From assembly GCA_051294375.1 (NCBI GenBank), contig CM119263.1, positions 6,487,645 to 6,551,644 on the forward strand: DNA of 64,000 bases, in the 5' to 3' direction. The first letter of the stretch is position 1, and each line of letters begins with the position of its first letter. Both the position numbers and the translations under genes were made by a program. The notes under the pieces were generated by a model that did no database searches, was not told the origin of the DNA, and worked only from the letters and a program-made list of their open reading frames with translations. Shown here piece by piece: positions 8,101 through 64,000 of this stretch. The DNA is from Paraspadella gotoi. Taxonomy: Eukaryota > Animalia > Chaetognatha.

Positions 8101-8318
8101 TTCTTTTTTCTCACTTCGCCATCTCCCGAGTTTTTTTTTCCTTCTACGATTTTTATTTTTATCTTCTCGGCTTCACCTTCGTTCCACAGATTTTAACCCC
8201 GAACATAATTTTCTCTCTCTCGGCGTACGGCGTCATTTTTTTTATTCCTGTAGTTTCTTATCCTCTTGTTCATCTTTTCAAGATTTGAAAAGATTAAGCA
8301 AGGGAGGAAGTGAAGTAA

Positions 8319-8367
<49 letters not shown>

Positions 8368-11300: not shown

Positions 11301-11519
11301 TCGCTACGTTCTCTCTCTCACTCTCTCACACACATATCTTTTAGGTAAAGCGCTACCATGCGACCTCCGGCCCGTCGCCTCTTCGAAGAGTGGACCCAAG
11401 ATTGCCCACTTCCACCAGGTAATCCTATTTGTCGTTGCCGACAATTTTTTTCCCCATTTTTTTAAGCGTCGTCCCCGTCAGAAGGAAAAAGGCAGAAAGA
11501 GAAAAGAGGGAAGGGGGAG

Positions 11520-11551
<32 letters not shown>

Positions 11552-17500: not shown

Positions 17501-18952
17501 TGGTCGAATTCGGAAAAACGAATTACGTTGCGCGCGATTTGCTCTTAGAGATTTCCTTTTCCCTTTACCCTACTTTTTTGTTGCCTTAATTCTGTTTTAT
17601 TTAACCTTTCTCTTTTATTCCCTCAAAAATTGTTCATTCTTAGTATTTTTTTTTATTTCTCAACACTGTCGTTTGTATAGTATTTTTACTGTATATCTTG
17701 ATTAATTTCTTGGTACATTCCATTTTTAAATAACAAGTATCATTCTCCTCCATTTCAATCTCGCTTAACCATCTGACATTTTCCTCTTCTCAGCAACTCC
17801 ATCTTTGGTCTCCAACGAGCATCGCGTTCGGCCTTCGTCGATTCTCCGTCGACGCCTTTCTCCGGCGTCTCTTCCGTTGCCAGTTGGTGGGATTGGGCGG
17901 AGGGAGACTTTCTCGACGCCATGTTCGGAGACTCTGGGGGAGGAGGTGGAGGAGTCGACGAAGACAGCAGACTTTGGGTTCTCGGGGGAAACGCCTTCGT
18001 CGTCGGCGACGTCGTCATGAAACAATCCCGGATTTCACTCGAATTCTGCCCAACGGGTGAGCCAAGTCGTGTTTTGTTGGAATTAAACTTGTATCCGCGA
18101 GCATCAAATATTGTTCGGTCTTGTTCAAAATATTCTCATCCTTTTCATCCCCAAAAATAGGTCACGTGATCATTCCCGGTTTGAGGGACGCAAAAACGAT
18201 CTGCAATCCCGCGTACTCGCCGGCCTCTTCTTCCTCTTCTTCATCTTCTTCTTCCGCGCGACTGGCTTCGCCGCGATTTAATCTCGAGGCCTTCCTCCCC
18301 TTCGGCCCTAACCTCACTTGGACCTTTTCGGACCGGCACCGCGACTGGAGCTCCTCAAGGGTCAGTGGATGATGGGTCTGGCTAACGTTTTTTTTTTTCG
18401 GGGGTTGGGAGGGGAAGGGGTGTTAGGAACGAAAGGATGAAACGGAGGGGGCCGGGAATCTCATTAAAAAGAGGGTGAGAGGAAAAGCAAAAAACGGTTC
18501 ACGTTTAAATCCGTCATTCAGGGAATTCACGGGCTTTACTCGGAAGGCGGCTACATCTTCCAGTTTCCTCGTTCCTCGACGGATGCCAGACGCGAGCTGA
18601 AGCATTTACGAGATTCCCGATGGATCGACAGACAGGTGATTCGGGTTTTCTCTTTCTCTCTCTCTCCCTTTTTCTCTCTCTCGCCAGTTTCCCCTACGCC
18701 CTCCACTATTTCCGTCGCCGCCACTCGCAAAGTTGGCAACGTTTGAAAAATTGAAATTCCCTCTTTTTTTTCGCGGATCGAGCGCGAAAAACGAGCCGCG
18801 CGTGCGGGTGAAAGCGAACACGGAATTAGAACCGAGAGCAAAGAGAGAGAGGGAGAGAGGGAAGCGAGAGAGAGGTGAATTATTTCACCCATTTCTTTCT
18901 ACTCCCACAAACTTTCCCCCTNNNNNNNNNNNNNNNNNNNNNNNNNCTCGAA

Positions 18953-19027
<75 letters not shown>

Positions 19028-19351
19028 TTCCTCTTCATTTCCCCTACCTCTTTCGTTCCTAATCTCATTCATTTTGCTCTTCCTTTCTTCTTCCTTTCTT
19101 CTTCCTTTCTCAATTCCCCTCAAGCGACTTTCGACTTTGGCCATGCTCGTCCTCTTTCCCACATTTTCTCCCACCGATCAGTTTCCTCCTTTCCTTGATA
19201 ACTATCACCCTCCCCACCCCCCCCCCTCCGCCTTTCCAGACTCGCGCCGTCTCCGTGTTCTTCACTCTCTTCTCGCCGGCGTCGAACCTTTTCACGTCGG
19301 TGTCTCTCTTGACGGAGACTCCGCCGTCGGGGGGCGTCTTCGTTCGTCCGA

Positions 19352-19397
<46 letters not shown>

Positions 19398-19533
19398 AAG
19401 AATATAGAAATGAATTCTCTGCCTTCGACGCCAAGGACGTCGTCCAGTCTGTGCCTCTTCCCCCCCCCTTCGGAGCCGCCAAAGGCCTTGATCGAAAATC
19501 GTTAAAAAAATGAGAATTTTATGCGACGTGATG

Positions 19534-19601
<68 letters not shown>

Positions 19602-19903
19602 AATCCTTTTGGAATATCAAGTCCAGTTCCCCGGCTTGGCGACCTCGCAACGGTCGGAGAATGTTAATAATCGTCGAATCGTGAAAGGCATTGCAGAGGC
19701 GGTGTAGCGCGAAGAGAGAAGGAAGAGAGGGTAAAGTCTGCTAAGAACTTCTTAGTGCTTTCCCCTTCCTTCTCCCCCTCCGCCTTTCCAGACTCGCGCC
19801 GTCTCCGTGTTCTTCACTCTCTTCTCGCCGGCGTCGAACCTTTTCACGTCGGTGTCTCTCTTGACGGAGACTCCGCCGTCGGGGGGCGTCTTCGTTCGTC
19901 CGA

Positions 19904-19954
<51 letters not shown>

Positions 19955-20134
19955 AATAGAAATGAATTCTCTGCCTTCGACGCCAAGGACGTCGTCCAGT
20001 CTGTGCCTCTTCCCCCCCCCCTTCGGAGCCGCCAAAGGCCTTGATCGAAAATCGTTAAAAAAATGAGAATTTTATGCGACGTGATGGAGAGAGAGAGAGA
20101 GAGGAGAGAAGAGAGAGAGAGAGAGAAGAGAGAG

Positions 20135-20169
<35 letters not shown>

Positions 20170-22126
20170 CTTTTGGAATATCAAGTCCAGTTCCCCGGCT
20201 TGGCGACCTCGCAACGGTCGGAGAATGTTAATAATCGTCGAATCGTGAAAGGCATTGCAGAGGCGGTGTAGCGCGAAGAGAGAAGGAAGAGAGGGTAAAG
20301 TCTGCTAAGAACTTCTTAGTGCTTTCCCCTTCCTTCTGAAAAGTTTGTCCTTTTCACTCACAATTACTTTCCTCGACGAAGTACGTTGACTTTATCTTCA
20401 ACTCTTTTCCCGTAGTGTCTCCTCGACGACCCTCTTCCGTTACGTGACGCCCTGGGACTCAGTTCGTCTCGTTCTCGAAATCTTTTTTCTCTTTCTCTTC
20501 CTCTCGCTCGCCGTTTCTGAAATCCACGCTGCAACTGGGCTGGGGCCCCAGGTAATCGATCGACGTGGGAAGGGTTGGGGTACTGGGATCAATACTATAA
20601 AAGAGAAAGTCACACTGGGATGTAGTTTGATGTTGTCCACCCTCATCGAGCATGGGTGAAGTCGGCGCCTTTCGACCCAGTGTAAAAAAAAATCCCTTAT
20701 TGGCAATAATCATGGGGCGAAAAAATATAAAAAGCCATGGAGTTAATGCAGCGCGCGGGTAGACGGCGACGACGGTTCATTCTCACGCACTCACGCTTGA
20801 ATAATCTAACGTGGCGGGATTAGCCCGCTTGAAGTTTCTCTCTACGCTCCCCTTTTTCTTCCCCATCCTATATCCTCCCATCTCCTCTCCATTTCAATTA
20901 CTCCTCATCTCCACGCAGAGACAATACTTTTGTTTGCCTTTTATTTCGGCGATAAACAACCCATTCGGAACCATTTTTCAAGACTCGAGTAATTAAAGAA
21001 TTTCGGCACTCTGCCATCTCGCGTCTCTCCCTCTCTCTCTTTTTCTTTTCCATTCTCTCGAGTTTTTTCTGTTAAAAAAAAGGAAAAAAAAAACTTTCGG
21101 AGAGAAAGCAAAAAGCATCAACAAACGCCTGAAACACTGGCGGGCCGGCGGCGCTTTCTTTTTTTTTTTTTCTGCCGCCTGTGCGCCAGTTTACGCGCGC
21201 CCTTGTCGTCTGGAGAAATTGATCGTATTCTCTCTCGCATCTGTCAGCCTCGTTTGTCACGCTGGAAGGCATAAGTAGAGTCTGCAAATTAATCCTTTTG
21301 TTAGAAAATTGAAAAGGCTTTATTCATATCGGCGGCGCTAATACCCGACCCTCGTTTCTTTCTCTCCTTATGTCTCTACGTCTGTCCGGGTCTCAATTCA
21401 TTTCTAAACGGATTTTTTAATCCGCTCCTCGGTGCACCCCCCTTTCCCATTTCCAGGCCTACTTCCGGTCCGCATGCCACGCTGCGCGCTTGGCGTTTGT
21501 GCTGCTCTGCGGCGCGTATCAGGTCTGCCTCGTTTATCGATTTTTCGAAGCGGAATTCATCATCGAAGAGTTGAGGGCGACGCATTACGACGCCTACGTG
21601 GATGTCAGCTACGTCGCCTTTTGGGACGAGGTAATAAAAAATGGCGTCTCTCTCGAGCGCTCGTCTTTTTTCTCTCTTCTCCTCGACGCTCATCCTCTGC
21701 CCTTTTTTTTACATTCGGGATGTCTGTCGCTTTGTCATTCTGAGTTTTTCTGTTTTTTCTTCAATCCTTTCGACCGATTACTTATTTAACTCTAAACTTT
21801 TTTAACGTCTTTTTCGTGCGCGCAATTATTAATTTTTTTTTTTTTTTTTTGGTGTGGATATCTTTTACCCTTTCTTCATCCGACAAACCATTATTGTCTT
21901 TCGGTTTTTCATATCCGCAGAATTTTAAATTTTATTATCTTTATTCTCCAAGTCTTTCCATTCCAATTCTTAACCTTATCTTCCAATCGACGCGTTCCCT
22001 TTTTCAATTCCCCATCCGATGTCTTCTTGTGAGTAATTATTCTGCTCGCCTTCACTTCTCGAGGCAATCATCCCTTTTTTCCATCGCCTCTTTCTTTCTT
22101 TCTCTCTCTCTCTCTCTCTCTCTCTT

Positions 22127-22185
<59 letters not shown>

Positions 22186-25009
22186 GCCTTTTCTTTTCCA
22201 TCTCTCTTTTCTTCCACCACTCCAACTCTCTCTTCCGATACCATGACTTTAAATAATATTTGATTAAAACCTGTACATATGCAAAAAAAAAACCAACTTT
22301 TTAAAGTACAGTATTGTAAAGTAATTTGATGTTTTATTTCCCCCTTCTCTCTCCCTTCCCCCTACCCTCTACTCGACTCCCCCTCTTGGCAGGTGCTCTC
22401 CTCACTGCTGGGGATGCTCCTCTTCCTCTTCCTCCTACAATCACTTCGCCTGCTGCGCTTCTTGCGCGGCTTAACCCGCGTGACTCGAGCCCTCTCTCGG
22501 TCAACGCGGGACGTGGCGTCGATGGCTTTGGCGTTTGTTGGCGTCATCGTCGTCTTCGCAGCACTGGGTCTTCTACTCTTCTCGTCCGACGCCAACTTCG
22601 CTACATTCAGCGCCGCCTGCGGGTCCTTGGCGAGCGCCCTGGCGGGATTATACAGTCTAAAAGATATCGGGTATTTGGGATGTTTATCTTTGTTTTTCCT
22701 CGACGAATTCCCCTAACGTCTTCGTTTTCTCGCAGAACCCTTAAAGCTGATGTTTTCTACTTCGCCTTCCTCGTCGTTTCCTTCGGCGTCGTTTTTGCTT
22801 TTGGAGCCGCAATCTTGTCCAAGCATTTGCGCCGCGAGGCGCGTCGGCACCGACGCCGGATGGAGCGCCGATTAAAGAACGGCGTCGGCACCACTGCGGC
22901 GCCAGACAACGCGTGGGGAAAGGCTCTCGGCGCCCGGGACATCGCCAACATCGCTTGGTCAAAGTTCTTGGTTTGGGCGGGATTTCGTCCGGCGCCGGAA
23001 TGGGATAAACCGATGGAAGGGCTGTCAGCGGTGAGTGCTCGGAAAAATAATTCAGATTATAACCGACTTATTCGTTATCAAATAAAAATATTTTCCGTCT
23101 CTTTTGACCCACTGTTTTCCACAGGAATTCATTCTCGCGGAATTCGAATTCCAAATCGACGAGTTGCTGCAAAAACTCGATTCCATCTCGGGCGCGGTTC
23201 CACCGTGTTCGGCGCCCCCTTTACCCTCGGCATCGATTGTCAAGCCTAATACGGAACCGCCGTTGGCGCCGACCCACGGCGTCCACCCGAATCTCGAACA
23301 CCGCCTCAATCGCATCGAGGACGATTTCTCGAAGAACGACGCCGACTGGGCGAAGCTGATAGATTTGGGAACCTTCGGGGTGGAGGACCCTGAAGAGAGA
23401 CAGGAGAAGGTAGGATTCGGCAGCTGGGATGGGTGGGAGTTTCCAGAGGTTGTTGCGAATGTATTTCGACGTTTAAATCTATTCGTCATTGTGCCAGGAA
23501 CTGCGCGCCGCTCTGGAAATGGAAATCTTTCGCCAGCTGCAGTTGGCGCCGCCCGAAGACGATTCAACGTTGATCGTGGCGGCGCTTGAAAAAGGCGTTG
23601 ATTCGTCGACAACGGCGCCGCGAAACGAAGCCGACGGTGATCAGTTGCTGCAGCTGTTGGGCCTCGATCCGGAGGGCGCCAACTCTGCCGCCGCAACTGA
23701 AATCCTTCTCGCCAACTTCTCCAACTCGATGCAGCGCGAGCAAGACCTTTTGGCGGATCCATTTCGGGCCGAAGGAAACGGGGTAAGTTTATAAAAGTGG
23801 CTCCAATGTGTCCTACTTTGTTTAAAATATTCAGAATAAAATTTTTCATTTAATTATTTTTAACATATTTTTTCATCAAACGCTTACGCTCAACTCATTC
23901 TACACCGAGGTTCTCGTTATTTTCCAGATATTCCACGTAATGAACGACATCCCTTACCATCCTCCGAACGCTGTCGACGACGGCGACGACGTCGAAGTGG
24001 ACATTCCTTACCACGGACCCTCGAGCGGCGATCAGGATTCGTTGCAGTCGGACGAAATCTCCATTCCCGACTGGACCACGCCTCCTCCTCCCCCGCGGAG
24101 CAACCGGGCGAGAAAGAGAACCAAGGAATCCAAGATTCTCGTGAGTGACTCTAAACAACATCTTATAATATTAGTCAATAATGTTTTTGGAATAACCTTG
24201 CGTTTGTTTTCAGGACGATCTTTCTTACTCCTACCACTCCGCGGGTGGAGACGCCCCTTACCTTTCCGGCGGGGATGACATTCCTTATTATCCTCCATTG
24301 GAATCCGGCGTCGACGATTCGGTCGAAGTCACCGTTGAGATTCCGGGTCATCTACTCGACGATGAGGAAGAAGAGGAAGAAGAAGAGGGGGCGGAGTCGA
24401 AGGACTTTGCCAAGGTGAGTTCGTGACTTTCGCATCGACGTTTCGATTTCAACCAATCATCCTCTTTTCCCTTTCAAAACTCCCAGGTGAACATGGCGTA
24501 TTTCGGCGATCACGGTTCGCCTCCTCCGCTGCCCAAGTCCTCCCGCTCGTTCGCGGCCGACTCCGCCGTCAGCGCGGCGGCGAGACTGCCATCCGGCGCA
24601 GCGGAGAGGCCGAAGGCGGCGCCGAAGTCAAAATCACAAGAACGAGATTCGTTTTTGGACGAAACTGCCTCCGCTCGCAGCCGGTAAAGAAATTGGAGGA
24701 TATCCATTGTTAATATATGTAGTAGTTTCGTTGTTTCATCCGTTGTTTTGTTTCCTCGTTTGTTTCGTTGTTTGTCTTTCTTCATCAGCGTCTCTCCTTT
24801 ATCTCAGCGGAACGAAGCGCGGAGAGACCCGCCCCCTTGGTAGACGCCTCCACAAGACGCGTTCGCGCGGCAAGGGCAAGTTTTTGTCTGCGCGGTCGGA
24901 GGACGAGGAATTGGAGGCACCGACGTCGAGGCCACGCCCACATGCCGGAAACCACAACCTCGCCTTCAACCCGACCAGCGATGCCGAAGACGGAGAAACC
25001 AAATGTTGA
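1594..25009 (+). CDS. Polycystin-1-like (PKD1/PKD1L/REJ family) protein, 5'-truncated by the window edge; GAIN/GPS, TM1, PLAT/LH2, further TMs, polycystin cation-channel domain and long cytoplasmic tail
   Basis: Phase-consistent exons: 1594-1691, 4843-5038, 6981-7200, 7517-7770, 9882-10138, 10372-10520, 10753-10881, 11345-11418, 12134-12275, 12544-13059, 14508-14668, 16900-17163, 17794-18056, 18161-18360, 18522-18635, 19240-19352 (or its duplicate 19792-19904), 20416-20551, 21457-21630, 22393-22670, 22736-23030, 23125-23409, 23498-23782, 23928-24140, 24214-24414, 24487-24683, 24808-25009 (TGA). Motifs: GPS CLEW..GWSSGTC..HCRC; PLAT YQITVETGFRRGAGTTSRV and VWHDNSGASPSWFL..FVADKWFAVEEDDG; HLWASIVTRPSYSRFTRCQR; YSEGGY..WIDRQTRAVSVFFTLFSPASNLF; S4-like LRLLRFLR. 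Confidence 0.92.
5801..5910. repeat. Dispersed repeat fragment, copy 1 (homologous to 13334-13481)
   Basis: The blocks atcactcttacaagat(a/g)atgacata and aatgaagtggtataatatttcaa(c/a)gaatgtttca(a/t)ttgtat...accactccctt occur in two different PKD1-like introns. Confidence 0.75.
7517..10138 (+). other. PLAT/LH2 domain of the PKD1-like gene (two exons)
   Basis: YQITVETGFRRGAGTTSRVSIVLHG...LFARNSRDTFVIT|VPKSLGPIWKVQVWHDNSGASPSWFLSRIVVEDL...FVADKWFAVEEDDGKVER matches the polycystin PLAT consensus. Confidence 0.93.
13334..13481. repeat. Dispersed repeat fragment, copy 2 (homologous to 5801-5910)
   Basis: Same two conserved blocks as 5801-5910, with a longer spacer between them. Confidence 0.75.
18955..19025. 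repeat. (CT)n/(AG)n microsatellite, representative of dozens across the window
   Basis: Similar tracts at ~174-211, 961-1008, 3636-3689, 5066-5120, 8322-8362, 22100-22180, 29600-29800, 30220-30280, 32312-32380, 35184-35260, 35510-35605 and 36993-37092. Confidence 0.95.
19222..20337 (+). repeat. Direct tandem duplication of ~550 bp including one 113-nt PKD1-like exon
   Basis: 19222-19773 and 19774-20337 are near identical and differ mainly in (AG)n tract lengths. Both contain the exon TRAVSVFFTLFSPASNLFTSVSLLTETPPSGGVFVRP with intact splice sites. Confidence 0.93.
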
Positions 25010-33166: not shown

Positions 33167-50884
<17,718 letters not shown>

Positions 50885-53826
50885 TGCTTTTTGTGTTGTA
50901 GTTATTATTTACTCGTATTTGATGCACGTAAAAACAAGAGTTGTTTTGTACAGTATTTATTTTATTATTAAATAAGTTTTATTTTTGCTTTGGAACCGAG
51001 TCTTTTTTTCATACTATTTTGAAATTAGATAATTTAATTACATAAGTCTTGGCAAAAAAAAGTGACACTCTTCTCTATCATTTGTTTTCTTTCAAGCTGG
51101 TGGCGCTGCTAGTTTCAATCGAATCCAGAAAAATGACCAAACGGCAGAAAAATATTCAGTTAGAAATCAAGTTGGTGTGCGATTTTTAAATTTCCTAACT
51201 TTCGATAAAACTTTATTAAAAACTTTACAACTCCGTGGTTAAGATCGCCATGATGTTTATTTGCTCAGCTTCGAGTCGAAGGTGATCACGATGAGGATGA
51301 CCACGATGTCTGAATTTAGTTCCCGAGCAGACGCAACGTAGAAAGTATCGTTTTAACTTGCTAGCTATCCTTTATCCAAAAAAAAAAAAAGAAACCAAAG
51401 TATAAAGTGATTGGTCAATAGGTCATGTTATCAACTAAATAATGATGATTATGTCTTCTACAATAAAAGCACAAAAATTACAACCAGTAAGAATAACAAA
51501 ATATACAACAATCAGTGACTAAAACATAATACAACTATACATCTTTATGATTTAGTCTTGAAGCAAGATCCATTCGAGAAATCCACCTTGATTGATGAAA
51601 GAATGACAAGATTCCACTCATCACAGTTATTTTAACAGTATTCCCAGATTATTGAGAACTTCTTTCTTTGCTTTCCGCTTATAAAGGATGGCATCATTTT
51701 ATAAATGGTAAAGGTTCCACATTTCTATAGTTAATATTAAAATATCATGCTTTTTTTTAAAAATAGCGTTCAATTTTATCTATTATGAATGAACGTATTA
51801 CATTAATCTACTTTTGGCGGTTGCGGGCCATTAAAATGTCAAAAAAATATCGTGCAAAAAATATATGTTTTCTCATGTAGATTGTCAAATTCTTCCGAGA
51901 TTATAGCAACTATTGTTAAAAAAAAAAAAAAACATTTGTACATGACTAGATACCGACAGGTTGGATTACACGAATATAATATAAAAAGAGCCATAATACC
52001 GAGTGGCAATAAAAAATTAGTCCTATCGCAAAAAATAAAAAAAATTATTTCGCCATTTTTTGAGCATGATTGACAACTAACGCCGAGGTAGCACGTTTTA
52101 ATTTGCTCTTGTTAGTGCGTATTATGTTTACCATAAAAATGTCAAAGAAATCGAGCCTCAGAAATGATATACTTTGGGAATACTTTTCAATTTTAAAATC
52201 GTCACGCTAGTGACTAAAATGTTTTGAAAACAGCGTTGCGAAAAAAAAAGGGAATTATTGCCAAGGAACAGGCCGTGTAACGTGAAATCCATAACTGGAA
52301 TAATATACCGAAATGGGGATGACGATTATTATTACTTAAGAAAATAAAATGAGTTGGACAAAACAGCAGAATGATCTATGAAGAAGGTTGAATTGTTACA
52401 TCATGTAAGTGACAGGTGTTCTAAAAATAGAAAAGTAATATGCTAAAATTCTTAAATAAGAAAAAAAAAATGCTCTGTTGGGTTGTTTTTTTTTTTTTTA
52501 AACAATAAATGGAAGATAATTTGTGTAGAAAATACGGAAAGAAAATGATCTAGGATGGAGAAAAATAAGCATCTGATAAGACAAAGGTTAAATCTTTGTC
52601 GTCATAGACATCTAGCGGGAATTGGGGGAGGGGAGTCACGTCTAAACAGAGAAATTACGATCGCGCCATAGGGCTTTCCACTTTTATCGGAAGTAATTTC
52701 GCTTTTCGATATGTTCCAGAGTTTCGTTTCGATTACAAGCTGCTTGTGGTCTGGCCACAGTGACATTCGCTTTCAGTGACGTCGGTTAGAAGACAAACAT
52801 TTGATACGATATCGAGATTAAGCTCACATTACGGTGCATATTTCTGGTTTTTTGTTTTTTAAATTATGTAAGTTAAAAGTTATGCTTTGGTTTAGGTGAT
52901 TCGATTTTACAGGTGCTCAACACGAAAATAGTGACTGGGTATAAATCGTGTCGTTCGTTACTGTTTGGCGATTCTTTTACAACATAGTATACAAAAATAA
53001 GCACTTAAGTTCGACGAAGAGTAAAAAAATATGTATAAACGGAATACGTTCTAATTTTGACGGTAGGTATATGGGCATACAAAAATACTGCATCTTTTAA
53101 AACATTTCTTGGAGAATCTTTACTTTATTTTTTTGTCCCGCGGCAGAGCGAACCTGAAAAATCTTTTGATATCGAATTCTTTGGATTAGTTTTGAGGCGT
53201 CGCCATCATATTTTAAAGACAAGCGCGAAGGTTTTCCAACGGACGACTTTATAAGAAGCTTTTCTTTTCAATTGCCTGTGCGTGATTATTTCGGAAAAAT
53301 AATAATAGAATAAACCGCTTCTTTTTCTTAATTTCTTTTCATATTTGGCGAGGGGGATTTTTATCGCGGTAGGTTTCTTGTGAAACAAAAGTATCACATC
53401 GCGAGTAAAAGAGAGAGAGAAAGAAGATAGTCTTGATATTCTATCCCAGAAGGCAAGATAGAATGATGAGAGGCGAAGGGAGAATGTTTTGTATTTCCAA
53501 CAAGAACAGGAATGTTGCTCGGGAATGTTGCAGAGGTGAAATGCTTAGGTGAAGAAGACGTGCGCGCGCGGCTTTTTTCCGATTCGATTCTTTCAATTTA
53601 AAAAAATTATTATTTCTTTGGTTTTTTTGCTCTGAAATATTTTTGACCTTTATGCTTTCAATTTATAAAATTTAAGTCCCGTTCACCGTTCGTCTTAACG
53701 TTCGATTTTGCTCGAGTTTTATCGCGAAATTTACATTTTTTTTAAAAAAACGATAGCAACGCATCTCTGGTTGTTTAATACTCTGTCCCATGGACAGAAG
53801 GGCGTTGCTATTTTGTTCCGCACCGA

Positions 53827-55875
53827 TCAGACCGAAACGCCGCCGCCATCCCTCGAGTCCTTAAGAATGATGACGTTGCCCTCGTAACCTGTGGAACGGA
53901 AAAGACGAATCGACGTTGAGTCAAGTTCTTTGAACCCAAAAAGCTAAAAAAAAAAGAAGAGGATTGACGGTTGAACCGACTTACCAGGTCTCAATTGGTG
54001 AGGCTTGAGAATTGGAGTTGTCAGCGTGAGCCACCGTTCCTTCAAGGATCCTTCGGCGAATATCAGTTTGTAGACCAAAACAATTGGAATCATGACGACC
54101 GACATCAATGCCAAGCACCACCTGAGGATTCAATAGCAAGCGTTAAGGTCGTGAGCTGTGCAAATGGTGCAAAATGTGCATTAATAAAGCATAGAGCGAA
54201 TGTCGACTTATTTAACTTAGTTGGTAACTTAAGGTGGCACTTTGCAATCGTCGCCCGACAAAATGTTTTTGATAACTTTCTTTTTCTTTCTTTATTTTTT
54301 CCTTTGATCCTTTCCATCCCTTCCTGCTAAGACTCCTCCTCCCATTTTTTTCCTTACCCGATCGTAATTCCCCAGACTGGGTACTTGTATGTCCTGTTGT
54401 AGGTCAACGTTTCGTAGTTGGCCACAGTCATAATGAACATGATGCTTACAAAGAGTGGCGACGCAATCATCCACAAGTATTTCCAGACAATTCCAGGGCT
54501 GAAGCCGAACATGAAGGAAATGTCCTCCATGAATCGGTTAACGCCTGAAAGCAAAATAAAAAATTCGTTGTAGCGAACGGGATTAATTGTATTTTATCAT
54601 GCGATAACACTAATTTACTTTTACGACGCTAGAGTTTAAATCTTTAACGAGCCTTTTGTTTTTTTCCTTTTTTAACTCACCGTAAACGTAACAAATGGCC
54701 AGACACTCGGCCAGTGCAATGAGAAGGATGATTCGACTACCGGAATAGTAGTCGAACAGTTGGAACACGTACATTCCGCCCTGGATACCAAATATTTTAT
54801 TACATAATATAAAACATCAATTGAAAATAGAATTTAAATAAATCAAATCAAGAACGAAGTGAACTCACATTTGTGACCATGCTGAGTCCGATCAAGTAGG
54901 AGATGATGGCCGTGATCCCGATGAAGATTTCCCGTCTGTATCCTCCCTTTTTGCGGAAGAAATCGGGGAACAGGTCGACGACCGCCGTGACGAATCTGGC
55001 GAGGGAACAATCAATTGCAATCAGAAGCAAGCAAAATCAAAATCAAATGAAAGTAGTAAACAAAATAAAAACCAACTGAACAAAAGTGAAATAAAAAAAA
55101 AGCAAATTAAAAAATAAAGCGAAATTAAAATAAAACTAAAAAAGAGAAAGGTAAGTAAGCGAACTCTTGTTTTAACTCACCCTTCGACGCCGACGAATTC
55201 CGAGTCGAGGCCGAGCAGAAGAACCATGAAGAAGAAGAGGATCGCCCAGAGGGGCGAGAGGGGCATCTGCGCCACGGCTTTGGGGTAGGCGATGAAGGCC
55301 AAGCCGGGACCTGGGGGTAAGGGCGAGTAGAGAGGGGATCGAGGGAAAATGGATTTTAAAACCCAGTCACGTAAGAATGAAATAATAATGAAAATAATAA
55401 TATTGATTAATTGATTATAATATCGTCAAAACACTTAATTTAAGTAGAGAAAAAAATGCGAAACTGTACAATGTACAGTGTACATTTAGCAATTGTAATG
55501 TACCCGATTCGGCGACGTCTTTGACGGCCTTCCCGGCCTCTTTGGCCATGAAACCCAACACCATAAAAATGACGAAACCAGCGTAAAAACTGGTTCCGCT
55601 GTTTGTCAACGCGAACATGACTGAATCTCTGTGTTGAAAAAAATGGGGGAAAGGGAATTCGGGTGAGGGAGGTGAGGGGGAAAGGGGGGGGGAAATAGAA
55701 GAAATGAATGAAGGAGAGGGAGAAAGATAAGAGGGTGATGAGTAAGAGAAAGAGAAAAATATCGGGAAGGGAAAAGGATATGGAAGAAAAGGAAACGGAC
55801 AAGTCGGGATAGGAGATGGAAAAATTAATTAAGAACAATCATCGAACAATTAAACATCTTCTAACGGGGGACATC

Positions 55876-55934
<59 letters not shown>

Positions 55935-57078
55935 TGGAAAACTAAATTATTATTAAAGCCTATTAAAAGTATACATAAACTCGTAAAATAAGATTATTAT
56001 GAAAACTGTATTAGAAGATATGAGAAATTATCTAAACTGCTACAATATGTAAATGAGATTGAAGAACTTAATTTCATTTGTAATGAACCACAAATTATTC
56101 TGCTACTTCCATCATCTAGCAATAATCTCTCACATTTAACGTTTTGTCATCAATATTCACAGACAACGCATTTCCGTTCGCCGCTTCGATCGTCATCGTC
56201 CTCACCCATTATCACTTTCTTCCTTCAACCGCGAATCCAATATCGCACTTCCTTCCTGCCAATATTTGCAACCCCCCCTCTCTCTCTCTTTGACATCCAG
56301 AACTGTAAACCGACCTAAAAGAATTGTGGTGAAATTTGTTGTAGCTTCCCAACGCCGTCAATGTTCCAAGCGAAATGGAATAGGAGAAGAAAATTTGTGT
56401 CCCCGCGTCGACCCAGACCTTAGATCGGATCGGGAGGGGGGCGGCGGGTGGGCGAGGGGGATGCGGGGGGGGGGGAAAGTTGGCGGGGTTAAAGATTGCA
56501 TCACTAAATCGAAGAAATCAAAACGATTATAAGAGCAAGAAATAATATTAAAACTAAACTGACTAAAAAGAAAACAAGATTTAGAAGAAAAAAAATATTT
56601 AAACGAAATTTTGTGAGAATCAAATAAATTTAAGGTTGAACAAAAAATCATGGTTAAGTTATCGTCGTCGCCGCCGAAACTCACCTCCATGGTGGCCAGT
56701 TTGCTCCATTCGGGCATGAGGTAAGCCTCGATCCCGAGGATAGCGCCGTCTAGGGTCGCGCCGCGGATACAGAGAATCGTCATCAAGACGTAAGGGAAAG
56801 TCGCGGTGAAGTACATCACCTGACCAGGGTAAGGTACGGGGTGAAAAGAAGTGGGTTAATCTCCCGAGAACATAAAAAAAGATACCCACCTAATAAATTA
56901 CCTTTTTCGTCACTTAAACACTTAAAAATCAAGATACGGACTTACCTTTCCGGATGTCTTGATTCCCTTGCAGATGCAAAGATAGACGATGACCCAGGCG
57001 AGCAGAAGCGTGAGCGCCAAATCCCACTTGATGCCACCCGGATCTTCCAGGCCTTTGGAGATGCCAAGGATGTGTCGC
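53827..57078 (-). CDS. SLC6 Na+/Cl--dependent transporter (GABA/taurine/betaine/creatine subgroup); only the exons from the end of EL2/TM4 to the C-terminus are present
   Basis: Phase-consistent GT-AG exons: 57078-56946 ([44 protein letters not shown]), 56819-56685 ([10 protein letters not shown]), 56418-56315 ([27 protein letters not shown]), 55628-55504 ([13 protein letters not shown]), 55310-55181 ([23 protein letters not shown]), 54995-54869, 54780-54681 ([15 protein letters not shown]), 54544-54358, ~54121-53985, ~53888-53827 (TGA). No TM1-TM3 exons (GLGNVWRFPY etc.) were found in the window. Confidence 0.93.
55876..55931. repeat. (TTA)n microsatellite in an SLC6 intron
   Basis: Directly visible trinucleotide run. 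Confidence 0.95.
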
Positions 57079-57322
57079 CTTATTAAGGGAAGGTGGATAA
57101 GGGAAATTTGGGGGGAAAGATAAAAAATGAAATTTATTTAAATACGATGAAAGCAAGGATAATCTTGCCAAGCTAAAGCCTTTCATGTTAATTAAAATTT
57201 CAGCTAACCAAGAAAATAAAAATAGGTAATTTGTCTAAAAAACCTAGCTGGTGAATATCATCATAACCTAATTTATATTTAAATGAGTTTAAGTAAAAAT
57301 AAGGCAAGGAAAAACAATTTGA

Positions 57323-57328
57323 TTTATT
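57323..57328 (-). promoter_or_regulatory. Candidate polyadenylation signal (AATAAA) for the Xsc-like gene
   Basis: TTTATT on + (AATAAA on -) lies ~220 nt downstream of the Xsc stop codon, with a second at 57133-57138. The region is AT-rich, so chance occurrence is possible. Confidence 0.35.
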
Positions 57329-57546
57329 TTGGTTCATTTCCAAGATAGTTCGGCTTTAATTAACTCGTGTAATTTCTTCATCAATGTTCCCACGATATAT
57401 TGAAGTATGGAATCTAATGATTAGTTAACAAAATAAATTAGAAAACGCGATATCTTGACATCGGCTGCTCGGTCCAACGGTCGGTCGGTCGAACGGTCGG
57501 TCCGTAGATCCTCCAGCCGTCGGCTTCTTGGTCGGCCCCGCCCTTT

Positions 57547-58199
57547 TCACTTCAAGTCGGTCGGTTGCCCCGTCGACGATTCCTTCGACTCCGACAGAGA
57601 AGAATACTTCTGCAGCAGCCGCTTCGGCAGCTGCATGGCGTCGCGGCGGAAGGGATCTCCCAACTCTTTCGTCAACATCAACTCCAGAACCGTCGTTTTG
57701 CCCTCGCTCTGGTTCTTTATGGCCTGAAGAGAAATATAATTGAAATAGAGAATAAGTCTACCTCCTTCCCCTCTTGTAAATTCCTCACGACTCTTATTTC
57801 TAAAACTTACACTCCTTAGCAAAAACACCCCCCCCCCCGTGTCCCCCATTTCGATTTCCCCTTTTTGGTTTCCGACCAAATCTTCCAGGCAATTTTCTAT
57901 TCACTCGATCCATCATCAACCGGGTTTGGTGATGGGAGGGATATAAGGCATCAACGGAGACTCGATTGCGGATGTTATGGAACGGGAACAACAAGGCGAA
58001 ACCATTATAAAGATATGGGTGGTTCACAAAGTAGTGAAATGGTTTTAAAAGATTTTTAGATTGCTCTACGAGTAGAAAAGTAAAAAAGATCAGGAGAAGG
58101 AAAAGTTGCGTGAAAAGTAAATTCGGAGCGAAGAAATGGTGAAGTTTACGGTTGAACGAGTACGCGGAGGGGGTGGCAGGGGAGAGGAGAGAGAGAAGA

Positions 58200-58237
<38 letters not shown>

Positions 58238-61200
58238 AGAGAGAGATGACAGATAAAGGGAAGAGAGAAAGAGTGAGAAAGAGAGCGAAAACACAGAAAG
58301 AAACCAAGAAACCAATCGGATAAATTTTTTCAATGCTGAATGAATAACTAGTAAGAAAAGGAGAGAAACAATGAGCTATAGTAGGAAGAAAGAAAGAGAG
58401 GGAGAAAAATAAAAGATACGTACTAAGCTTAAGGGACAAAGAACTTTATTATTATTTTTCCCCCATCTTTTCCATCTTCTCTGATCAAGGAGATTTTTAA
58501 GAAAATAAAAGAATCGATTGAGCTATAAAAAAAATGGATTGAAAATAAATGAATCACCTTGACAACGGACAACCGTAATCAAATTAATACAAAAGCGAAG
58601 AACTCGGAAGCAATAAAACCATAAGGCAGAAAAAACAGGATTAACTGCGATTTGCAGGAGAGAAAAGTAAAGCGCAAACAATGGATGAGGACTTGGATGG
58701 CGAAAACCGATTCCGGAAATGGAAAAGAGAAAAAAGGAAAAGGGGAAAAAAAAGAAAGAAAAGCTGGGATAAAAAGGAGATGAGCGAAAGAGAAAATATG
58801 GAAGAGGAAAGGAGGGGGGGACAACATCCATAAGTCTCCCGAAAATAGGGTGAAGATAACTAAATTTGGCACGCTTGCACGCGCGAGAAAAAGAGAGAGA
58901 GAGAGAGAAGAAATCGCTCACACCGTTTATTCCATGTCATTCCTTCAACACCCAACCTAATTCCACGCCAGCGCTACTCCCCCACATCAGCCCCCAAGCT
59001 CGTCCCCACGCACGCGCACCTGTTTCAACGCGTCTCCCACTTGGTCTGCGTGCGTGCACGTGATTCCTTCGGCCGACATTGCGCGCGCAATCTCCGCGAA
59101 GCTGAACGTGTTGTTCAAGTTGCTGCCGACATATCTGAGGGAAGGTGAAGCGCGGGGGAGAGAGGTAGAGTCTTTGATAAAGGCTCAATCTCTTTTAAAA
59201 TATACAGGTTAAGTCTTCTTCTCCTGAAAATAACGGGATATTAGGCGGGGAAAGTGGATAAGATGGGGGAAAAGGATAACTTTGCAGAAAGTATGGAGAG
59301 ATACGATATATGAGGAAAAGGAAACGCGAGACAAAGAATATGTAGGACGTGAGAGAGGGAAGAAGAGAAAGAGAATTTAAAGCAAACAACTGGTTGGTGG
59401 GAAGAAATGATTAAAACAAGGGAAACAAGTCGCATGTCCATGGGGGGGAAGCGATCGACTGTCAAAGGTAAGTAAGCGAACTCTTGTTTTGAAACTGGAG
59501 CACAAAGTAATATAACCTCGTGTTGGGTAGTTGCGCCCTCAATTTCTAGAAGACAACACTAACGTCCCCATCCTAAACGGATAAATAATATTATATTTAA
59601 ATATTTAACCCCAGAAAGATTTTAACAAATAAATAAAGTCAGAAATAGTTATTTTTAAATCTAAAAAAATAAAGATAGTGAAAAGAGTAATTTTGCAACT
59701 TTCATAAACCCAGACAGAAAAATCTTACGAAAGCAAGTCTTATCGCTTTTTTTTTTACTACAAGTCCAAAGATCAAGATAATAATCGCAAGCACCTATTC
59801 TTTTTATTATCGACTTGAAATATGAAAAAAAAAAAAAAAAAAAAAAAATACGCACCTGTCTCCGAACCACAAGACTTGATTTTTCTTCTCCGCTCCCCAC
59901 TGCTGGTTGTGGAAGACCACGGCGGTCGTGGGGATCGATTCCCGGACGCAGGTGAGGACCTCGTTGAGGCTCATTCCCCACGCCCCGTCACCCACGTATC
60001 CGATCGCCGGCCTTGTTGGATTCAAGAGGCAAGGGTTAATTCAAAGTGGTCGAATAGGGCGCGACCCTAATCGGACGCAGCTCCACAACCTGTCGGGCGC
60101 GGCAACTTTAGCCCCCATGGCCGCGGGGAATGAGTATCCGCAATTGCCAAAGGTCATAGCGGCCAGCATGCCGGGTTGATTGAACCTCAAGTAGCTGTTG
60201 GCGACGGAGCAAACGTTGCCAATATCCGTGGCGACCATCGCGTCTCGGGGCATCGCTTTCTCCAGCTCGCGGAGAGCCACGCGGGGTTTGATCATGCCCA
60301 CTGGGGTTGGAGGACCCTGAGGGATAAAGAAAAAGGATCAAATGGAAATCGGGTCAGGTCAGAAAAACTCGTACCATACATAAGTATTGCATTCAACATG
60401 TTTTTTTGTATATTTTTTTTTATATCAGTGTTCTTTTGTTTGTCACCTCGTTCGCCATCGCGTCGAGCGTGGCCTCACTGGCGACGCGCTTCGTCTTCAA
60501 ATTCGCCATCCTCAATTCCTTGTTGGCCTCAGATGCCAGAAAGCCTTTGCCGCGTAGGAGGTGAAGGATCTCGGAGGCGGCCTTCTTTGCGTCGCCGTGG
60601 ACGCAAACGTCTGCCGATTTGGTCAGATTGAGGCGCTTGAAGTCGGCCTCCACCTTGGTTGAGCCAGAAGGGCGGTGAAGTTAAAGACCCGATTGCGACC
60701 TGGGACGACAATGGCAACAACAACAACGACAACCTGAATCAACTTGGCCGCCTTGGGCCAATAATCGATGCCGAACTGAGGATTCGTTCCGAAGGGGCTG
60801 AGCCTCGTTCCCAAGGCGACCACGACGTCGGCTTCTGAGATGATGTGCATGGCCCCTTGGTGACCCTGGTAGCCCAGTGGGCCGCACATGAGCGGGTGAT
60901 CGGCGGGGAAGGCGTCGTTGTGGAGATAGGTCACGCAAACAGGCATGGAGACGAATTCGGCCAGGGCCTGACCGGTAATTTATTTTTTAATATCGGCAGA
61001 CATTTAATAATGTATTATTTACATTTGAAAAACGTTGCCTTAGTTTCTCGTGCCATGGTTTGAGAAACAGTACCAGATGATAAAAAAAAAAAAAAAAAAA
61101 AACTGAAACAGCGTCATCTCATTTTCCAAACAAAATTTCATTTTAAAAAAACCTTGGCCTCTTCGATGGCGTCGCCCATAACAACGCCGCCGCCGCAGAG

Positions 61201-62108
61201 CAGCACGGGGTTCTTGGCAGCGGCGATGAGTTCGGCGGCGGCTGCCAAGGACGCCGGCCCGCCGGCGCCTTGCTCGACGATCTTCGGCGTGGGAATGACG
61301 AAAGAGTTTTGGCCGTAGAAATAATCGCGCGGGATGTTGAGCTGAGTTGGGCCCCGCTCGATCATAGCGCGGTCGAAGGCACGGGCCGTCAATTCGGCCA
61401 TGCGGGCCGGGTTGTTGACGTGAGCTTGGAATTTGGTGATTGTCTCGAAGACGGACAACTGATCCATCTCTTGGAAGCCGCCGTGACCTTTCGGAAAAAC
61501 GGGAATCGAAAAGGACTTGAAAAATTGAAAATTTTCCTAATTTTCTCCAACCTTTGGTCATCGTTCCGGCTTCGGGAGTGATGGCCACGACCGGGGAGTG
61601 GGCCCAGTAGGCCGCCGCCACCCCCGTCACGAAGTTTGAGATGCCGGGTCCGTTTTGGGCGATGGCGACGCCGTGTTTGCCGCAGACGCGCGAGTAACCG
61701 TCGGCCATGTGGACCGCGTTCTGTTCGTGCTGGACCGAGAGAAATCGAATCCCGGCGGCCGGAAATAAATCGAGAGCGTCCATATAGGCGGAGCCGACGA
61801 TTCCGAAGACGTCCTTGACTTTGAGGAGAAATAACGAGAGGGAATGTTGTCAATTTAATGTCCCCTAAGAGGGAGCAAGCAATCATCAAGCAATTGAGCA
61901 AACCTCCGTGAGCAACGAGAGTTTCGACGAAAGCTTCGCTGTTGCTCATCATTTCCGGCTTCGCCACCGGCGCCTCATTTTCCGGCGCCAGTTCCGCGCG
62001 AACGGCTTCCGGCGTCGAGGAGACGCTCCTGGCGCCGACGCGTCGCGCAGCAGACGCCGCGGAAGCCGCCGGGGAGCGGGAGAGAAATTTGCACACAGTC
62101 GATGTCAT
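57547..62108 (-). CDS. xsc: Sulfoacetaldehyde acetyltransferase-like ThDP-dependent enzyme (Xsc), 9 exons, 640 aa, with a putative N-terminal mitochondrial targeting peptide
   Basis: Exons 62108-61904, 61818-61552, 61487-61153, 60967-60734, 60653-60447, 60316-60090, 60011-59856, 59134-59020, 57723-57547 sum to 1923 nt with no internal stop, and all introns are GT-AG. Xsc-type motifs: [76 protein letters not shown], ThDP motif [27 protein letters not shown], and C-terminal ELGDPFRRDA. Confidence 0.9.
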
Positions 62109-64000
62109 TTTGTTTATTGAAAAAACTATAAATATTAATAATTAAAATTTGAACCAGATCGCGAAAACCAGAGCAGGAGGAATGAAAACTGGCTCGAAGT
62201 TTTCGTCGTGATTAAAAATCGAAAATGAAAACGATTAAAGGAAGGATGCGGAGGGATGCGGTGACCAGTAATCGATCAATTTATTTGTCAATATTTACCT
62301 CATTATAAATTATTTTCAAATCATTAATAATAATATTAACTGTTTTTTTAAATGAAAATAAAATTAAAAGATTTTTCTATTATAGGATTATTAAGGATTT
62401 ATAAAGATTTTATAAGGGTACAACGACCCACAAAAAAAAACTACTTCAACTTTGAACTTTTGCCGAATGAAAAAAGGTAAACCGGTTTATTCCGGTTCGA
62501 AAACTTTAGTTTTCACTCACGCGACTCTTGCGCGAAAAAAAAAAAAAAAAAAATAGGAAAGCGATCGAAAATTAAAATGGAAATAAAGTGAGGGGGGCGG
62601 AACCTCGGCGCCATTTTAACGCCGGTTGTCTCGTTTGAATTTCATAAACCGACCTTGGTTGTCGGAAGTTTGCTGCGATGGCTGCTCTCGTTAGAAAGTT
62701 CAACCTGATTCTTAGATAAGCTGCTTCGTTACCTAACCTTACCCTACTCATCACTACCTTACCGCCATTTTAGTTTCTTATTTGACTTAGTTGACGTAGT
62801 TGACGTAGCTGACTTTCGACAAGCCGAAAGATTTCTGTTACATAACTTCAATTTAAATGCGGTTTATATAGCGCGAATTTGGGAGCAATATCTTCAAAGC
62901 TGATTCGAAAAAAAATTTGCTCCAAATTATTTTGCATAAATCTAGCTCGGGATTTCCTAATTGCCTTCATCGGAAAAAGCTTTTTGCATAACTTTAGCTG
63001 TGGCGGTTAATTATCCTGCACTTGAAACTTCTCAATCGATTATCGGACGTAATCGACAGACTTCAAAATATGCGCTACTAGAAATTTTCATAATGATAAA
63101 AAGGTGCTGATTCATTTCGTTGTTTACGAAACGGCCAATACCTGGGTTTTCGATTTGGCACTCTGATCAAAAAACAAACAAAAGAATAACTTGGGGTGAA
63201 AAAAAAAAGGAAAGTAGAACGGAGAAAAAAAGGTTTTAAGAAATGAGAGGGAGGAAAAATAAAGAAACGGAGGAAGAAGAAGAAAGGTAAAAACGAAGAA
63301 GAGGGGGGGCATAAAAAAGGATGAGGAAGGGAAAAAAAATCAGAAAAAGAGTTAGCAGAAGTTAAGCAAAAAATATGAGAAAAAGAAGCAAAAGAAAGTG
63401 TAAAAAGGAAGAGGTGAACGCGACAAAAAGAAAAAGGCGGAAAGGAAAATGGAAATAAAAACAAAGTAAAACATTTGGGAAAACATTTTGATAATGATTA
63501 CAATGTAAATCACTCGAGCTTTTGCGACTCAATAAATTATTTCTGATGCAAAANNNNNNNNNNAATCACTCGAGCTTTTGCGACGCAATAAACTATTTCT
63601 GATGCAAAACAAATCTGGAATCGGGGATTGAAAGAGAAATCGCTAGTATTGGTTGAAGATAAGAAACAGACCCAAACTTTGCATTCTGCACGTATTCTTT
63701 GATCTTATGTTTTATCAGTTGAACCGGTTATATAGGTTTTATATAACTTTAATTTTAAAGAACTCCTTCGTCCTTTTCCACTTCAAATGTCACGATTCTT
63801 CAAAAATTTAACAAGGTTTACAAAAGATATCGTAGGAAAAAAAAGCTAAGGAAAAGACAATTCAATAATAGGCTTTAAAGAAAAAAGTTGCAAACTTAAT
63901 TTCTTTTTTTTTCTATTTTTCCCTCTCGTCATCGTCATTAGATGGTGATAACTATTTTTTTTTAGAAAGGGAGGGGAGAGAGAAAAGAGGGAGTGAGAAA

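Follow-up and report, generated by a model that had tools for sequence, protein, structure and literature searches.

The locus described here raises the question whether an animal gene for sulfoacetaldehyde acetyltransferase (Xsc) was recently taken from bacteria or is an old possession of eukaryotes, and which reaction its product may catalyse. The gene, referred to as xsc, was analysed within a window, the whole stretch of 64,000 nucleotides from the chaetognath Paraspadella gotoi (GenBank: GCA_051294375.1, contig CM119263.1, positions 6,487,645 to 6,551,644). We favour, with a probability of roughly 0.68, the reading that xsc is a spliced nuclear Xsc gene of an old eukaryote-wide clade, whose product would be imported into mitochondria and would likely convert sulfoacetaldehyde into sulfite and acetyl phosphate. 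A sequence-only reading of the window had proposed a bacterial gene that was acquired horizontally and domesticated in the lineage of this organism.

Gene structure, enzyme family and N-terminal extension

The coding sequence of xsc comprises 1923 nt, corresponding to 640 amino acids and a stop codon, and contains no internal stops (Table 1). Introns 1 to 8 are 85, 64, 185, 80, 130, 78, 721 and 1296 nt long, have the phases 1, 1, 0, 0, 0, 2, 2 and 0, and all begin with GT and end with AG. The rebuilt gene model reproduces the 640 codons, the eight GT-AG introns and the intron lengths of the sequence-only reading, and the six motifs quoted there are found at residues 75, 90, 138, 207, 530 and 602.

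Splicing was followed in public sequencing runs which are presumed to be RNA; their type was guessed and none is on record as RNA. The removal of intron 8, with 1296 nt skipped, was detected in contigs of the runs X1 and X2 from two studies, and exons 7, 8 and 9 are joined in a single X2 contig (record 9). X1 contains a share of 0.61 of the sampled words from 59800-62200, where 0.60-0.64 is expected for exons only, which indirectly indicates that introns 1 to 6 are removed too. No contigs over exons 1-3 were found in the record-filtered set of X1 and X2, a gap that carries no evidence, and the runs X3 and X4 contain almost none of the sampled words of the xsc region. The contig depth in X1 is about 1150 at exon 8 versus about 6 at intron 7 and is not a measure of expression. 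Two non-canonical joints (57722-57859 and 58305-60398) have low depth and were discarded as repeat or graph artefacts. A short dispersed repeat in intron 7 (59509-59707) is matched by many variant X1 contigs.

The GC content is 0.56-0.64 in the xsc exons and 0.28-0.53 in the introns. At third codon positions it is 0.77 in xsc, 0.69 in the neighbouring SLC6 transporter gene and 0.81 in a kelch exon of the window, and the relative synonymous codon usage of xsc correlates with that of the SLC6 gene at 0.61 and with that of the kelch exon at 0.84. The host-like codon use claimed by the sequence-only reading is borne out by this resemblance to the neighbouring genes, and its rejection of bacterial contamination stands as well, given the introns spliced in the contigs of two studies and the matching codon use. 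There are no N gaps at 57079-63553. We regard it as practically certain that xsc is a real, expressed nuclear gene that is spliced.

Exons 2 to 9 tile the Xsc model TIGR03457 at its positions 19-104, 106-215, 218-294, 296-359, 380-447, 450-498, 501-537 and 540-579. Since the exons match successive and nearly contiguous parts of the model, chance is no plausible cause of their order. The two Xsc models, TIGR03457 and PRK07525, rank first in all eight in-frame core exons; for exon 2 they reach 145-155 bits versus 82 for acetohydroxyacid synthase (AHAS) and 54 for HACL, and for exon 7 the HACL model reaches 20 bits. The exon scores add up to about 694 bits, a rough sum over exons, compared to the TIGR03457 cut-off of 676.4. 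The relative P0001, which is 83.5% identical to the window protein, lies above this cut-off with 841.8 bits, as do all 16 chosen full-length relatives on the eukaryote side (777-876 bits), whereas the AHAS model TIGR00118 gives the listed relatives at most 367 of the 538 bits needed. The profile comparison thereby favours Xsc over AHAS and HACL on every core exon, in keeping with the assignment to Xsc rather than AHAS, ILVBL or HACL1 that had been read from the motifs.

An alignment of 45 eukaryotic and bacterial rows has 120 invariant positions. E100, which we take to be the catalytic glutamate, is invariant in these 45 rows, and nine of the ten positions of the C-terminal motif (602-611) are invariant across 49 Xsc rows. 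Both E100 and G499-D-G-A...N527, presumably the motif binding thiamine diphosphate (ThDP) and Mg, are kept in the window protein. Only three columns are specific to the eukaryotic Xsc clade, and the window clade is placed within the Xsc radiation, among bacterial rows that score above the cut-off. The predicted structure of the Rhopilema protein, with a predicted local distance difference test (pLDDT) score of 71, has generic ThDP-fold matches only, with a template modelling (TM) score of about 0.7. There is hardly any doubt that the window protein belongs to the Xsc family, and from its conserved residues and profile scores we predict with good confidence that it catalyses the Xsc reaction; a point on the other side is that we found no assayed eukaryotic member of the family.

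The first 53 codons precede the Xsc core. The first acidic residue of this extension is at position 34, and Arg27 lies two to three residues ahead of a Ser-Ser site that fits a cleavage-site pattern devised for this analysis. Arg, Ser, Leu and Ala richness with few acids is a hallmark of mitochondrial presequences. Residues 2-21 of 119 eukaryote-side extensions consist of 13.5% Arg, 14% Ser, 11.8% Leu and 1.1% Asp and Glu, and they are rich in Ala too. No acidic residue occurs at these positions in 102 of the 119 eukaryote-side versus 12 of 72 bacterial extensions. A cruder rule, based on charge, discriminates less well and speaks against this reading, as it fires on 41 of the 72 bacterial and 105 of the 119 eukaryotic extensions. 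The extension is predicted to be a mitochondrial presequence and a trait of the whole eukaryotic clade, so that the product is, judged by composition, very probably mitochondrial.

Relatives and origin of the gene

Relatives were collected in three lists of the top 120 matches, each out of about 8000 scored candidates, most of them without a species name. The clusters P0001 and P0002 are the closest with 84% identity to the window protein, followed by Dracoamoeba (70%), Rhopilema (69%), Ancoracysta (67%), Clytia (66%) and Mnemiopsis (64%). Relatives from many eukaryotic groups are 64-72% identical, and the best bacteria of the reference set reach 64-65%. The named animal carriers are Rhopilema, Clytia, Mnemiopsis and Pleurobrachia, and the others are Thecamonas, Dracoamoeba, Copromyxa, Rhizamoeba, Ancoracysta, Artemidia, Lacrimia, Paraphysomonas, Ectocarpus and a Tripos fragment. 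The close relatives include jellyfish, ctenophores, an apusomonad, amoebozoans, Provora, diplonemids and stramenopiles. Several carriers are transcriptome records, in which prey sequences are possible; for six of the named ones the source is a genome project (Rhopilema, Clytia, Mnemiopsis, Pleurobrachia, Thecamonas and Ectocarpus). A Phyllostaurus label in the animal clade and a Symbiodinium label beside Paraphysomonas are possible contaminations and were excluded from the breadth.

Three distinct eukaryotic metagenome loci (L131-133, L164 and L165) have GT-AG introns in xsc, and in 78 metagenome loci scanned for it, the dinoflagellate spliced leader was not flagged. Of the 401 alphaproteobacterial genomes searched, 48 match at an E-value of 1e-120 or better; 13 near-full-length matches share 60-68% identity with the Rhopilema protein, and most of the remainder 45-48%. 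No bacterial sequence above about 68% was found in 80 GTDB loci and these 401 genomes.

Some of the relatives deserve a mention of their own. P0168 (Pleurobrachia bachei) has 1108 amino acids, about twice the usual length, and a very high score, as expected for a tandem duplication or a merged gene model. P0316 and P0320, on short contigs, are a divergent second Xsc-like type with about 42% identity and presequence-like N-termini; P0316 is above and P0320 below the PRK07525 cut-off, and they are possibly a second eukaryotic lineage. P0269, P0195, P0212 and P0215 form a subclade within the ctenophore/medusozoan clade whose sole name is that of an acantharian transcriptome; they are probably a planktonic animal group with a contaminated label.

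The main tree (LG+C20 model) has 51 rows and 577 columns, with rows taken as a subset of 418 full-length candidates plus later additions and with the long rows P0316, P0319 and P0320 excluded. All 29 eukaryote-side rows fall on one side of a branch with support 100/99, and the stem of this clade has a length of 0.21. The window gene, P0001 and P0002 form their own subclade (100/100). The eukaryotic clade has a long-branched alphaproteobacterial type as its sister (99/87), other alphaproteobacterial rows are basal, and actinobacterial rows fall within the beta/gamma group. As bacterial xsc moves between phyla, the donor is blurred. The position of the eukaryotic clade among proteobacterial Xsc rows agrees with the bacterial ancestry which the sequence-only reading had assumed, and the broad eukaryotic distribution, which it had named as speaking against a recent transfer, is seen in both the tree and the carriers.

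We ran approximately unbiased (AU) tests on 30 rows with the LG+F+G4 model. A sister position of the window clade to the sampled beta/gamma rows is rejected (p-AU 1.3e-4), and so is one to the sampled alpha rows (p-AU 4e-7). These two hypotheses had fast searches only, with a deficit of 138-147 log-likelihood units (lnL) compared to the 3-12 gained by full searches elsewhere. This excludes the sampled bacterial groups as sources of a recent transfer. A union of the window clade with the ctenophore/medusozoan clade is allowed (delta lnL 7.2, p-AU 0.43). Neither nesting in a bacterial clade nor confinement to one lineage was found for the window gene. Of the signs of an endosymbiont origin, monophyly and breadth over supergroups are seen, and the alphaproteobacterial sister rests on a long branch.

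Several observations weigh against an old common origin. Bilaterian, sponge, anthozoan, fungal and plant names were not seen in the three top-120 lists, and vertical descent would therefore require many losses. In the comparison of intron positions that the sequence-only reading had proposed, none of the four in the metagenome loci coincides with the eight of the window gene. The 29 eukaryote-side rows consist of 14 that are named by species, either themselves or through a cluster member, two from eukaryote collections, the window and 12 unnamed ones, and these 12 were assigned as eukaryotic by grouping and N-terminus, which is partly circular. The backbone within the eukaryotic clade does not resolve and amoebozoan rows are scattered in it. 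The best trees put the window clade outside the ctenophore/medusozoan clade (99/99), and the AU test does not reject a placement beside bacteria and apart from all other eukaryotes (p-AU 0.20). FastTree runs with long outgroup rows gave no clean eukaryotic clade; their root topologies are distrusted due to long-branch warnings. Taken together, we consider it very likely that xsc shares its origin with the genes of other eukaryotes, and one old entry into eukaryotes is favoured. This would have been a single early acquisition from proteobacteria, possibly from the mitochondrial ancestor, followed by many losses.

The alternative that survives best is that this lineage obtained the same enzyme on its own from a different eukaryote, such as protist prey, and that the patchy distribution reflects eukaryote-to-eukaryote transfers after one early entry and not inheritance from the last common ancestor. 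We hold this to be unlikely, even if every free tree places the window clade outside the ctenophore/medusozoan clade, no bilaterian is among the named carriers of the three lists, a dinoflagellate-containing cluster joins the diplonemids (100/98), and both the lack of shared intron positions and the site of xsc within what appears to be an intron of another gene would suit a later insertion. There is no supported donor, the best sister having only 84/80, monophyly with ctenophores and medusozoans passes the AU test, and the star-like backbone suits an old radiation.

The SLC6 locus and the proposed role

An SLC6 transporter gene follows downstream of xsc in the same orientation; its 3' part is in the window, where its 5' third is missing. 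An X1 contig exits the window at the acceptor at 57078 into an in-frame upstream exon, which is absent from the window, and no SLC6 N-terminal motifs were found in 57079-64000; the one partial match lies outside this range, at 40567. Because the 5' exons are absent around xsc and the contig leaves at 57078, xsc appears to be nested in an intron of the SLC6 gene in the same orientation, which is an unusual position. Alternatively, the SLC6 3' part could be a partial duplicate of an SLC6 gene located elsewhere. Another X1 contig (record 2) runs from xsc exon 9 into an SLC6 exon. We read it as a graph overlap with intronic RNA, because polyadenylation-like signals occur at 57360 and 57328, which probably mark the 3' end region of the xsc mRNA; a read-through into the downstream SLC6 exons is possible.

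The SLC6 exons were compared one by one with solved vertebrate and fly structures only. The best match is CT1 in three of six exons and the taurine transporter, the betaine transporter and GlyT1 in one each, and a member of the GAT group is the best match in five of the six. The putative importer linked to xsc at this locus is accordingly a CT1-like SLC6 protein of the GAT group and not of a bacterial importer type. According to the accessible part of Kinjo et al. (PMC3849432), invertebrate taurine transporters are CT1 orthologues and the functionally tested bivalve taurine transporters fall in the CT1 lineage. Judging from this paper, an SLC6 gene of the GAT group would also indicate that the host is an animal. 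By similarity, the host SLC6 gene is likely a taurine transporter gene. The link that it provides between xsc and taurine is suggestive and was drawn post hoc; since there are few GAT-group genes per genome, we infer that a chance adjacency is unlikely. Points on the other side are that CT1 also carries creatine and that one SLC6 exon matched GlyT1 best.

Bacterial Xsc is a ThDP enzyme that converts sulfoacetaldehyde into acetyl phosphate and sulfite, as stated in the accessible part of PMC13436972. In the bacterial route described in the accessible part of PMC10356861, taurine transamination feeds Xsc, followed by Pta and sulfite oxidation. In line with this, the close alphaproteobacterial xsc L035 adjoins genes for an omega-aminotransferase, a MocR-type regulator and acetate kinase, and L034 adjoins pta; L003, the third of the three loci inspected, is without such neighbours. 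Upstream of two bacterial xsc genes there is a similar open frame (L041:1094-2182 and L020:2007-2951), which by eye resembles a CobS-type ATPase.

In the proposed mechanism, the CT1-lineage transporter would take up taurine, and a mitochondrial class III aminotransferase would convert it to sulfoacetaldehyde. Following established Xsc chemistry, ThDP activated by Glu100 would add to the aldehyde, sulfite would be eliminated to leave an acetyl-ThDP intermediate, and phosphate would cleave this intermediate to acetyl phosphate in the mitochondrial matrix. Sulfite would go to sulfite oxidase, which would hand its electrons to cytochrome c. A further, putative enzyme would turn acetyl phosphate into acetate or acetyl-CoA, which is the weakest link of the scheme: to our knowledge animals have no Pta or AckA, and the fate of acetyl phosphate is therefore unexplained. 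Taurine is reasonably likely to be the main source of sulfoacetaldehyde. That this organism itself desulfonates taurine, as the sequence-only reading had suggested, is also what we would infer, and the predicted presequence and the SLC6 context strengthen it. A wider proposal, which we regard as doubtful, is that Xsc entered with the alphaproteobacterial mitochondrial ancestor, that it has stayed mitochondrial in numerous marine protists and planktonic animals, which therefore burn taurine, and that the SLC6-nested xsc is a cluster for uptake and cleavage. If true, these organisms would gain carbon, nitrogen and sulfite electrons from taurine without bacteria.

The protein might instead be a mitochondrial enzyme derived from Xsc whose substrate or acceptor has shifted. 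Sulfoacetaldehyde could then stem from isethionate, sulfoacetate or dietary sulfolipid instead of taurine, the substrate could be a different 2-substituted acetaldehyde, or a compound other than phosphate could serve as the acceptor. The long stem of the eukaryotic clade would fit such a shift, we know of no partner enzymes in animals, and there is no Xsc structure in the PDB copy (best match 210 bits; 30% identity by fold for the Rhopilema model) with which the substrate-binding residues could be compared. We consider the shift improbable in view of the 64-65% identity with bacterial Xsc, of scores that clearly exceed the equivalog cut-off, of the mere three clade-specific columns and a host gene of the taurine-transporter lineage.

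A recent bacterial transfer into the lineage of this organism, followed by intron gain, would agree with intron positions that are so far unique, and the allowed position outside all other eukaryotes makes an unsampled bacterial donor conceivable. It is nonetheless highly improbable, and the domesticated transfer of the sequence-only reading is not supported: eukaryotic relatives are as close as or closer than bacteria and form one clade with a common predicted presequence, the sister positions to the sampled alpha and beta/gamma groups are rejected, and the bacterial loci and genomes searched gave nothing above about 68%. The chance that xsc is a eukaryotic AHAS, ILVBL or HACL1 homologue, a contaminant or a mis-assembly is negligible, as the ThDP fold is common to AHAS, HACL and glyoxylate carboligase but the non-Xsc scores are far below their cut-offs with at most 30% identity, the Xsc models win every core exon, and the splicing in two studies, neighbour-like codons and gap-free sequence argue for a genuine gene.

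The neighbours of xsc in the window are the SLC6/SNF transporter gene, a kelch gene and a gene with a PLAT domain. At 39700-50900 on the plus strand there is a BTB/kelch-type gene, followed by low-complexity open frames of 1204 codons (45121-48735) and 573 codons (49163-50884). A polycystin-like gene with a PLAT domain is found at 6900-23900 on the plus strand, and within it 19300-19600 and 19700-20050 appear to be a local duplication. At 63500-63620 a stretch of about 50 bases occurs on either side of a 10-N gap, with two differences between the copies, which suggests an unmerged haplotype overlap.

Table 1. Features of the xsc locus in window coordinates, with the basis of each assignment.
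Feature	Position	Strand	Basis or remark
xsc gene	57547..62108	-	9 exons, 8 GT-AG introns; 640-aa ThDP enzyme of the sulfoacetaldehyde acetyltransferase family
N-terminal extension of 53 codons, predicted mitochondrial presequence	61950..62108	-	composition only
Exon 1 (extension and first 15 core residues)	61904..62108	-	gene model
Exon 2 (pyrimidine-binding domain, Glu100 of the HEQ motif)	61552..61818	-	TIGR03457 145 bits
Exon 3	61153..61487	-	TIGR03457 145.3 bits; non-Xsc models reach 60 at most
Exon 4	60734..60967	-	TIGR03457 123.9 bits; one X2 contig within the exon
Exon 5	60447..60653	-	TIGR03457 32.1 bits; the two Xsc models are the only matches
Exon 6	60090..60316	-	TIGR03457 95.9 bits; one X2 contig within the exon
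Exon 7 (motif G499-D-G-A...N527)	59856..60011	-	joined to exon 8 in X2 record 9
Exon 8	59020..59134	-	spliced to exon 9 in X1 and X2
Exon 9 (Xsc C-terminal motif 602-611, stop)	57547..57723	-	profile match; splice contigs
Two polyadenylation-signal-like hexamers (57360, 57328)	57323..57360	-	sequence match only
3' part of SLC6 transporter gene (GAT group, CT1-like)	53830..57078	-	at least 9 exons, last boundary imprecise; begins at Pfam SNF position 161
Apparent SLC6 intron enclosing the whole of xsc	57079..64000	-	6.4 kb or more, counted to the N gap at 63554-63563

Significance and comparison with known systems

In their accessible parts, reviews assign to bacteria the last step, in which Xsc cleaves the C-S bond of taurine, isethionate and related sulfonates (PMC13436972, PMC10356861). 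No description of a eukaryotic or mitochondrial Xsc was found in full-text searches of the literature, with most subscription journals and supplements (mitochondrial proteome and horizontal gene transfer tables) outside the search, and the accessible parts of PMC9294388, PMC11293860, PMC13474568 and PMC5942844 contain nothing on it. A table of Xsc transcript counts for the eukaryote-size plankton fraction is found in the accessible part of PMC5012681. The presequence-bearing eukaryotic Xsc clade is apparently undescribed; the Rhopilema, Clytia and Thecamonas proteins are already labelled as Xsc or Xsc-like by the NCBI pipeline. If our reading is true, a eukaryotic sink of ctenophores, jellyfish, amoebae, diplonemids and other plankton would join the marine sulfonate cycle, and it would no longer be safe to count the xsc reads of plankton metatranscriptomes as bacterial. 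It also raises the biochemical question of how an animal mitochondrion would use acetyl phosphate. The reading is directly testable because Clytia and Mnemiopsis, both laboratory animals, carry the gene.

Fungal taurine dioxygenases are a precedent for desulfonation in eukaryotes, with a different chemistry. AHAS, ILVBL, HACL1 and glyoxylate carboligase have the three-domain fold in common with Xsc (TM about 0.7 for the Rhopilema model) at an identity of at most 30%. The Roseobacter/Rhizobiales-type Xsc (P0312, L096 and L101), which we take to be 'subgroup 3', belongs to the Xsc family and is the sister of the eukaryotic clade (99/87), but it is only about 45-48% identical and its long-branch join may be an artefact. 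The CT1-lineage taurine transporters of invertebrates, as far as the accessible part of PMC3849432 describes them, resemble the host SLC6 gene, which belongs to the GAT group and has CT1 as its commonest best match. The proteins XP_065063844.1 (Rhopilema esculentum), XP_066916507.1 (Clytia hemisphaerica) and XP_013752668.1 (Thecamonas trahens) belong to the same clade as the window protein, with 57-69% identity and an N-terminal extension, whereas the window gene is in its own subclade with P0001 and P0002; no paper on these three pipeline-labelled proteins was found. Bacterial Xsc (EC 2.3.3.15; TIGR03457, PRK07525), known from beta/gammaproteobacteria, actinobacteria and some alphaproteobacteria, has 58-65% core identity with the window protein, which retains the catalytic Glu, the ThDP motif and the C-terminal motif. 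In contrast to bacterial xsc loci, pta, ackA, tpa and tauR are not among the neighbours of the window gene, and unlike bacterial Xsc it is nuclear, has eight introns and a presequence-like extension, and belongs to a separate eukaryotic clade.

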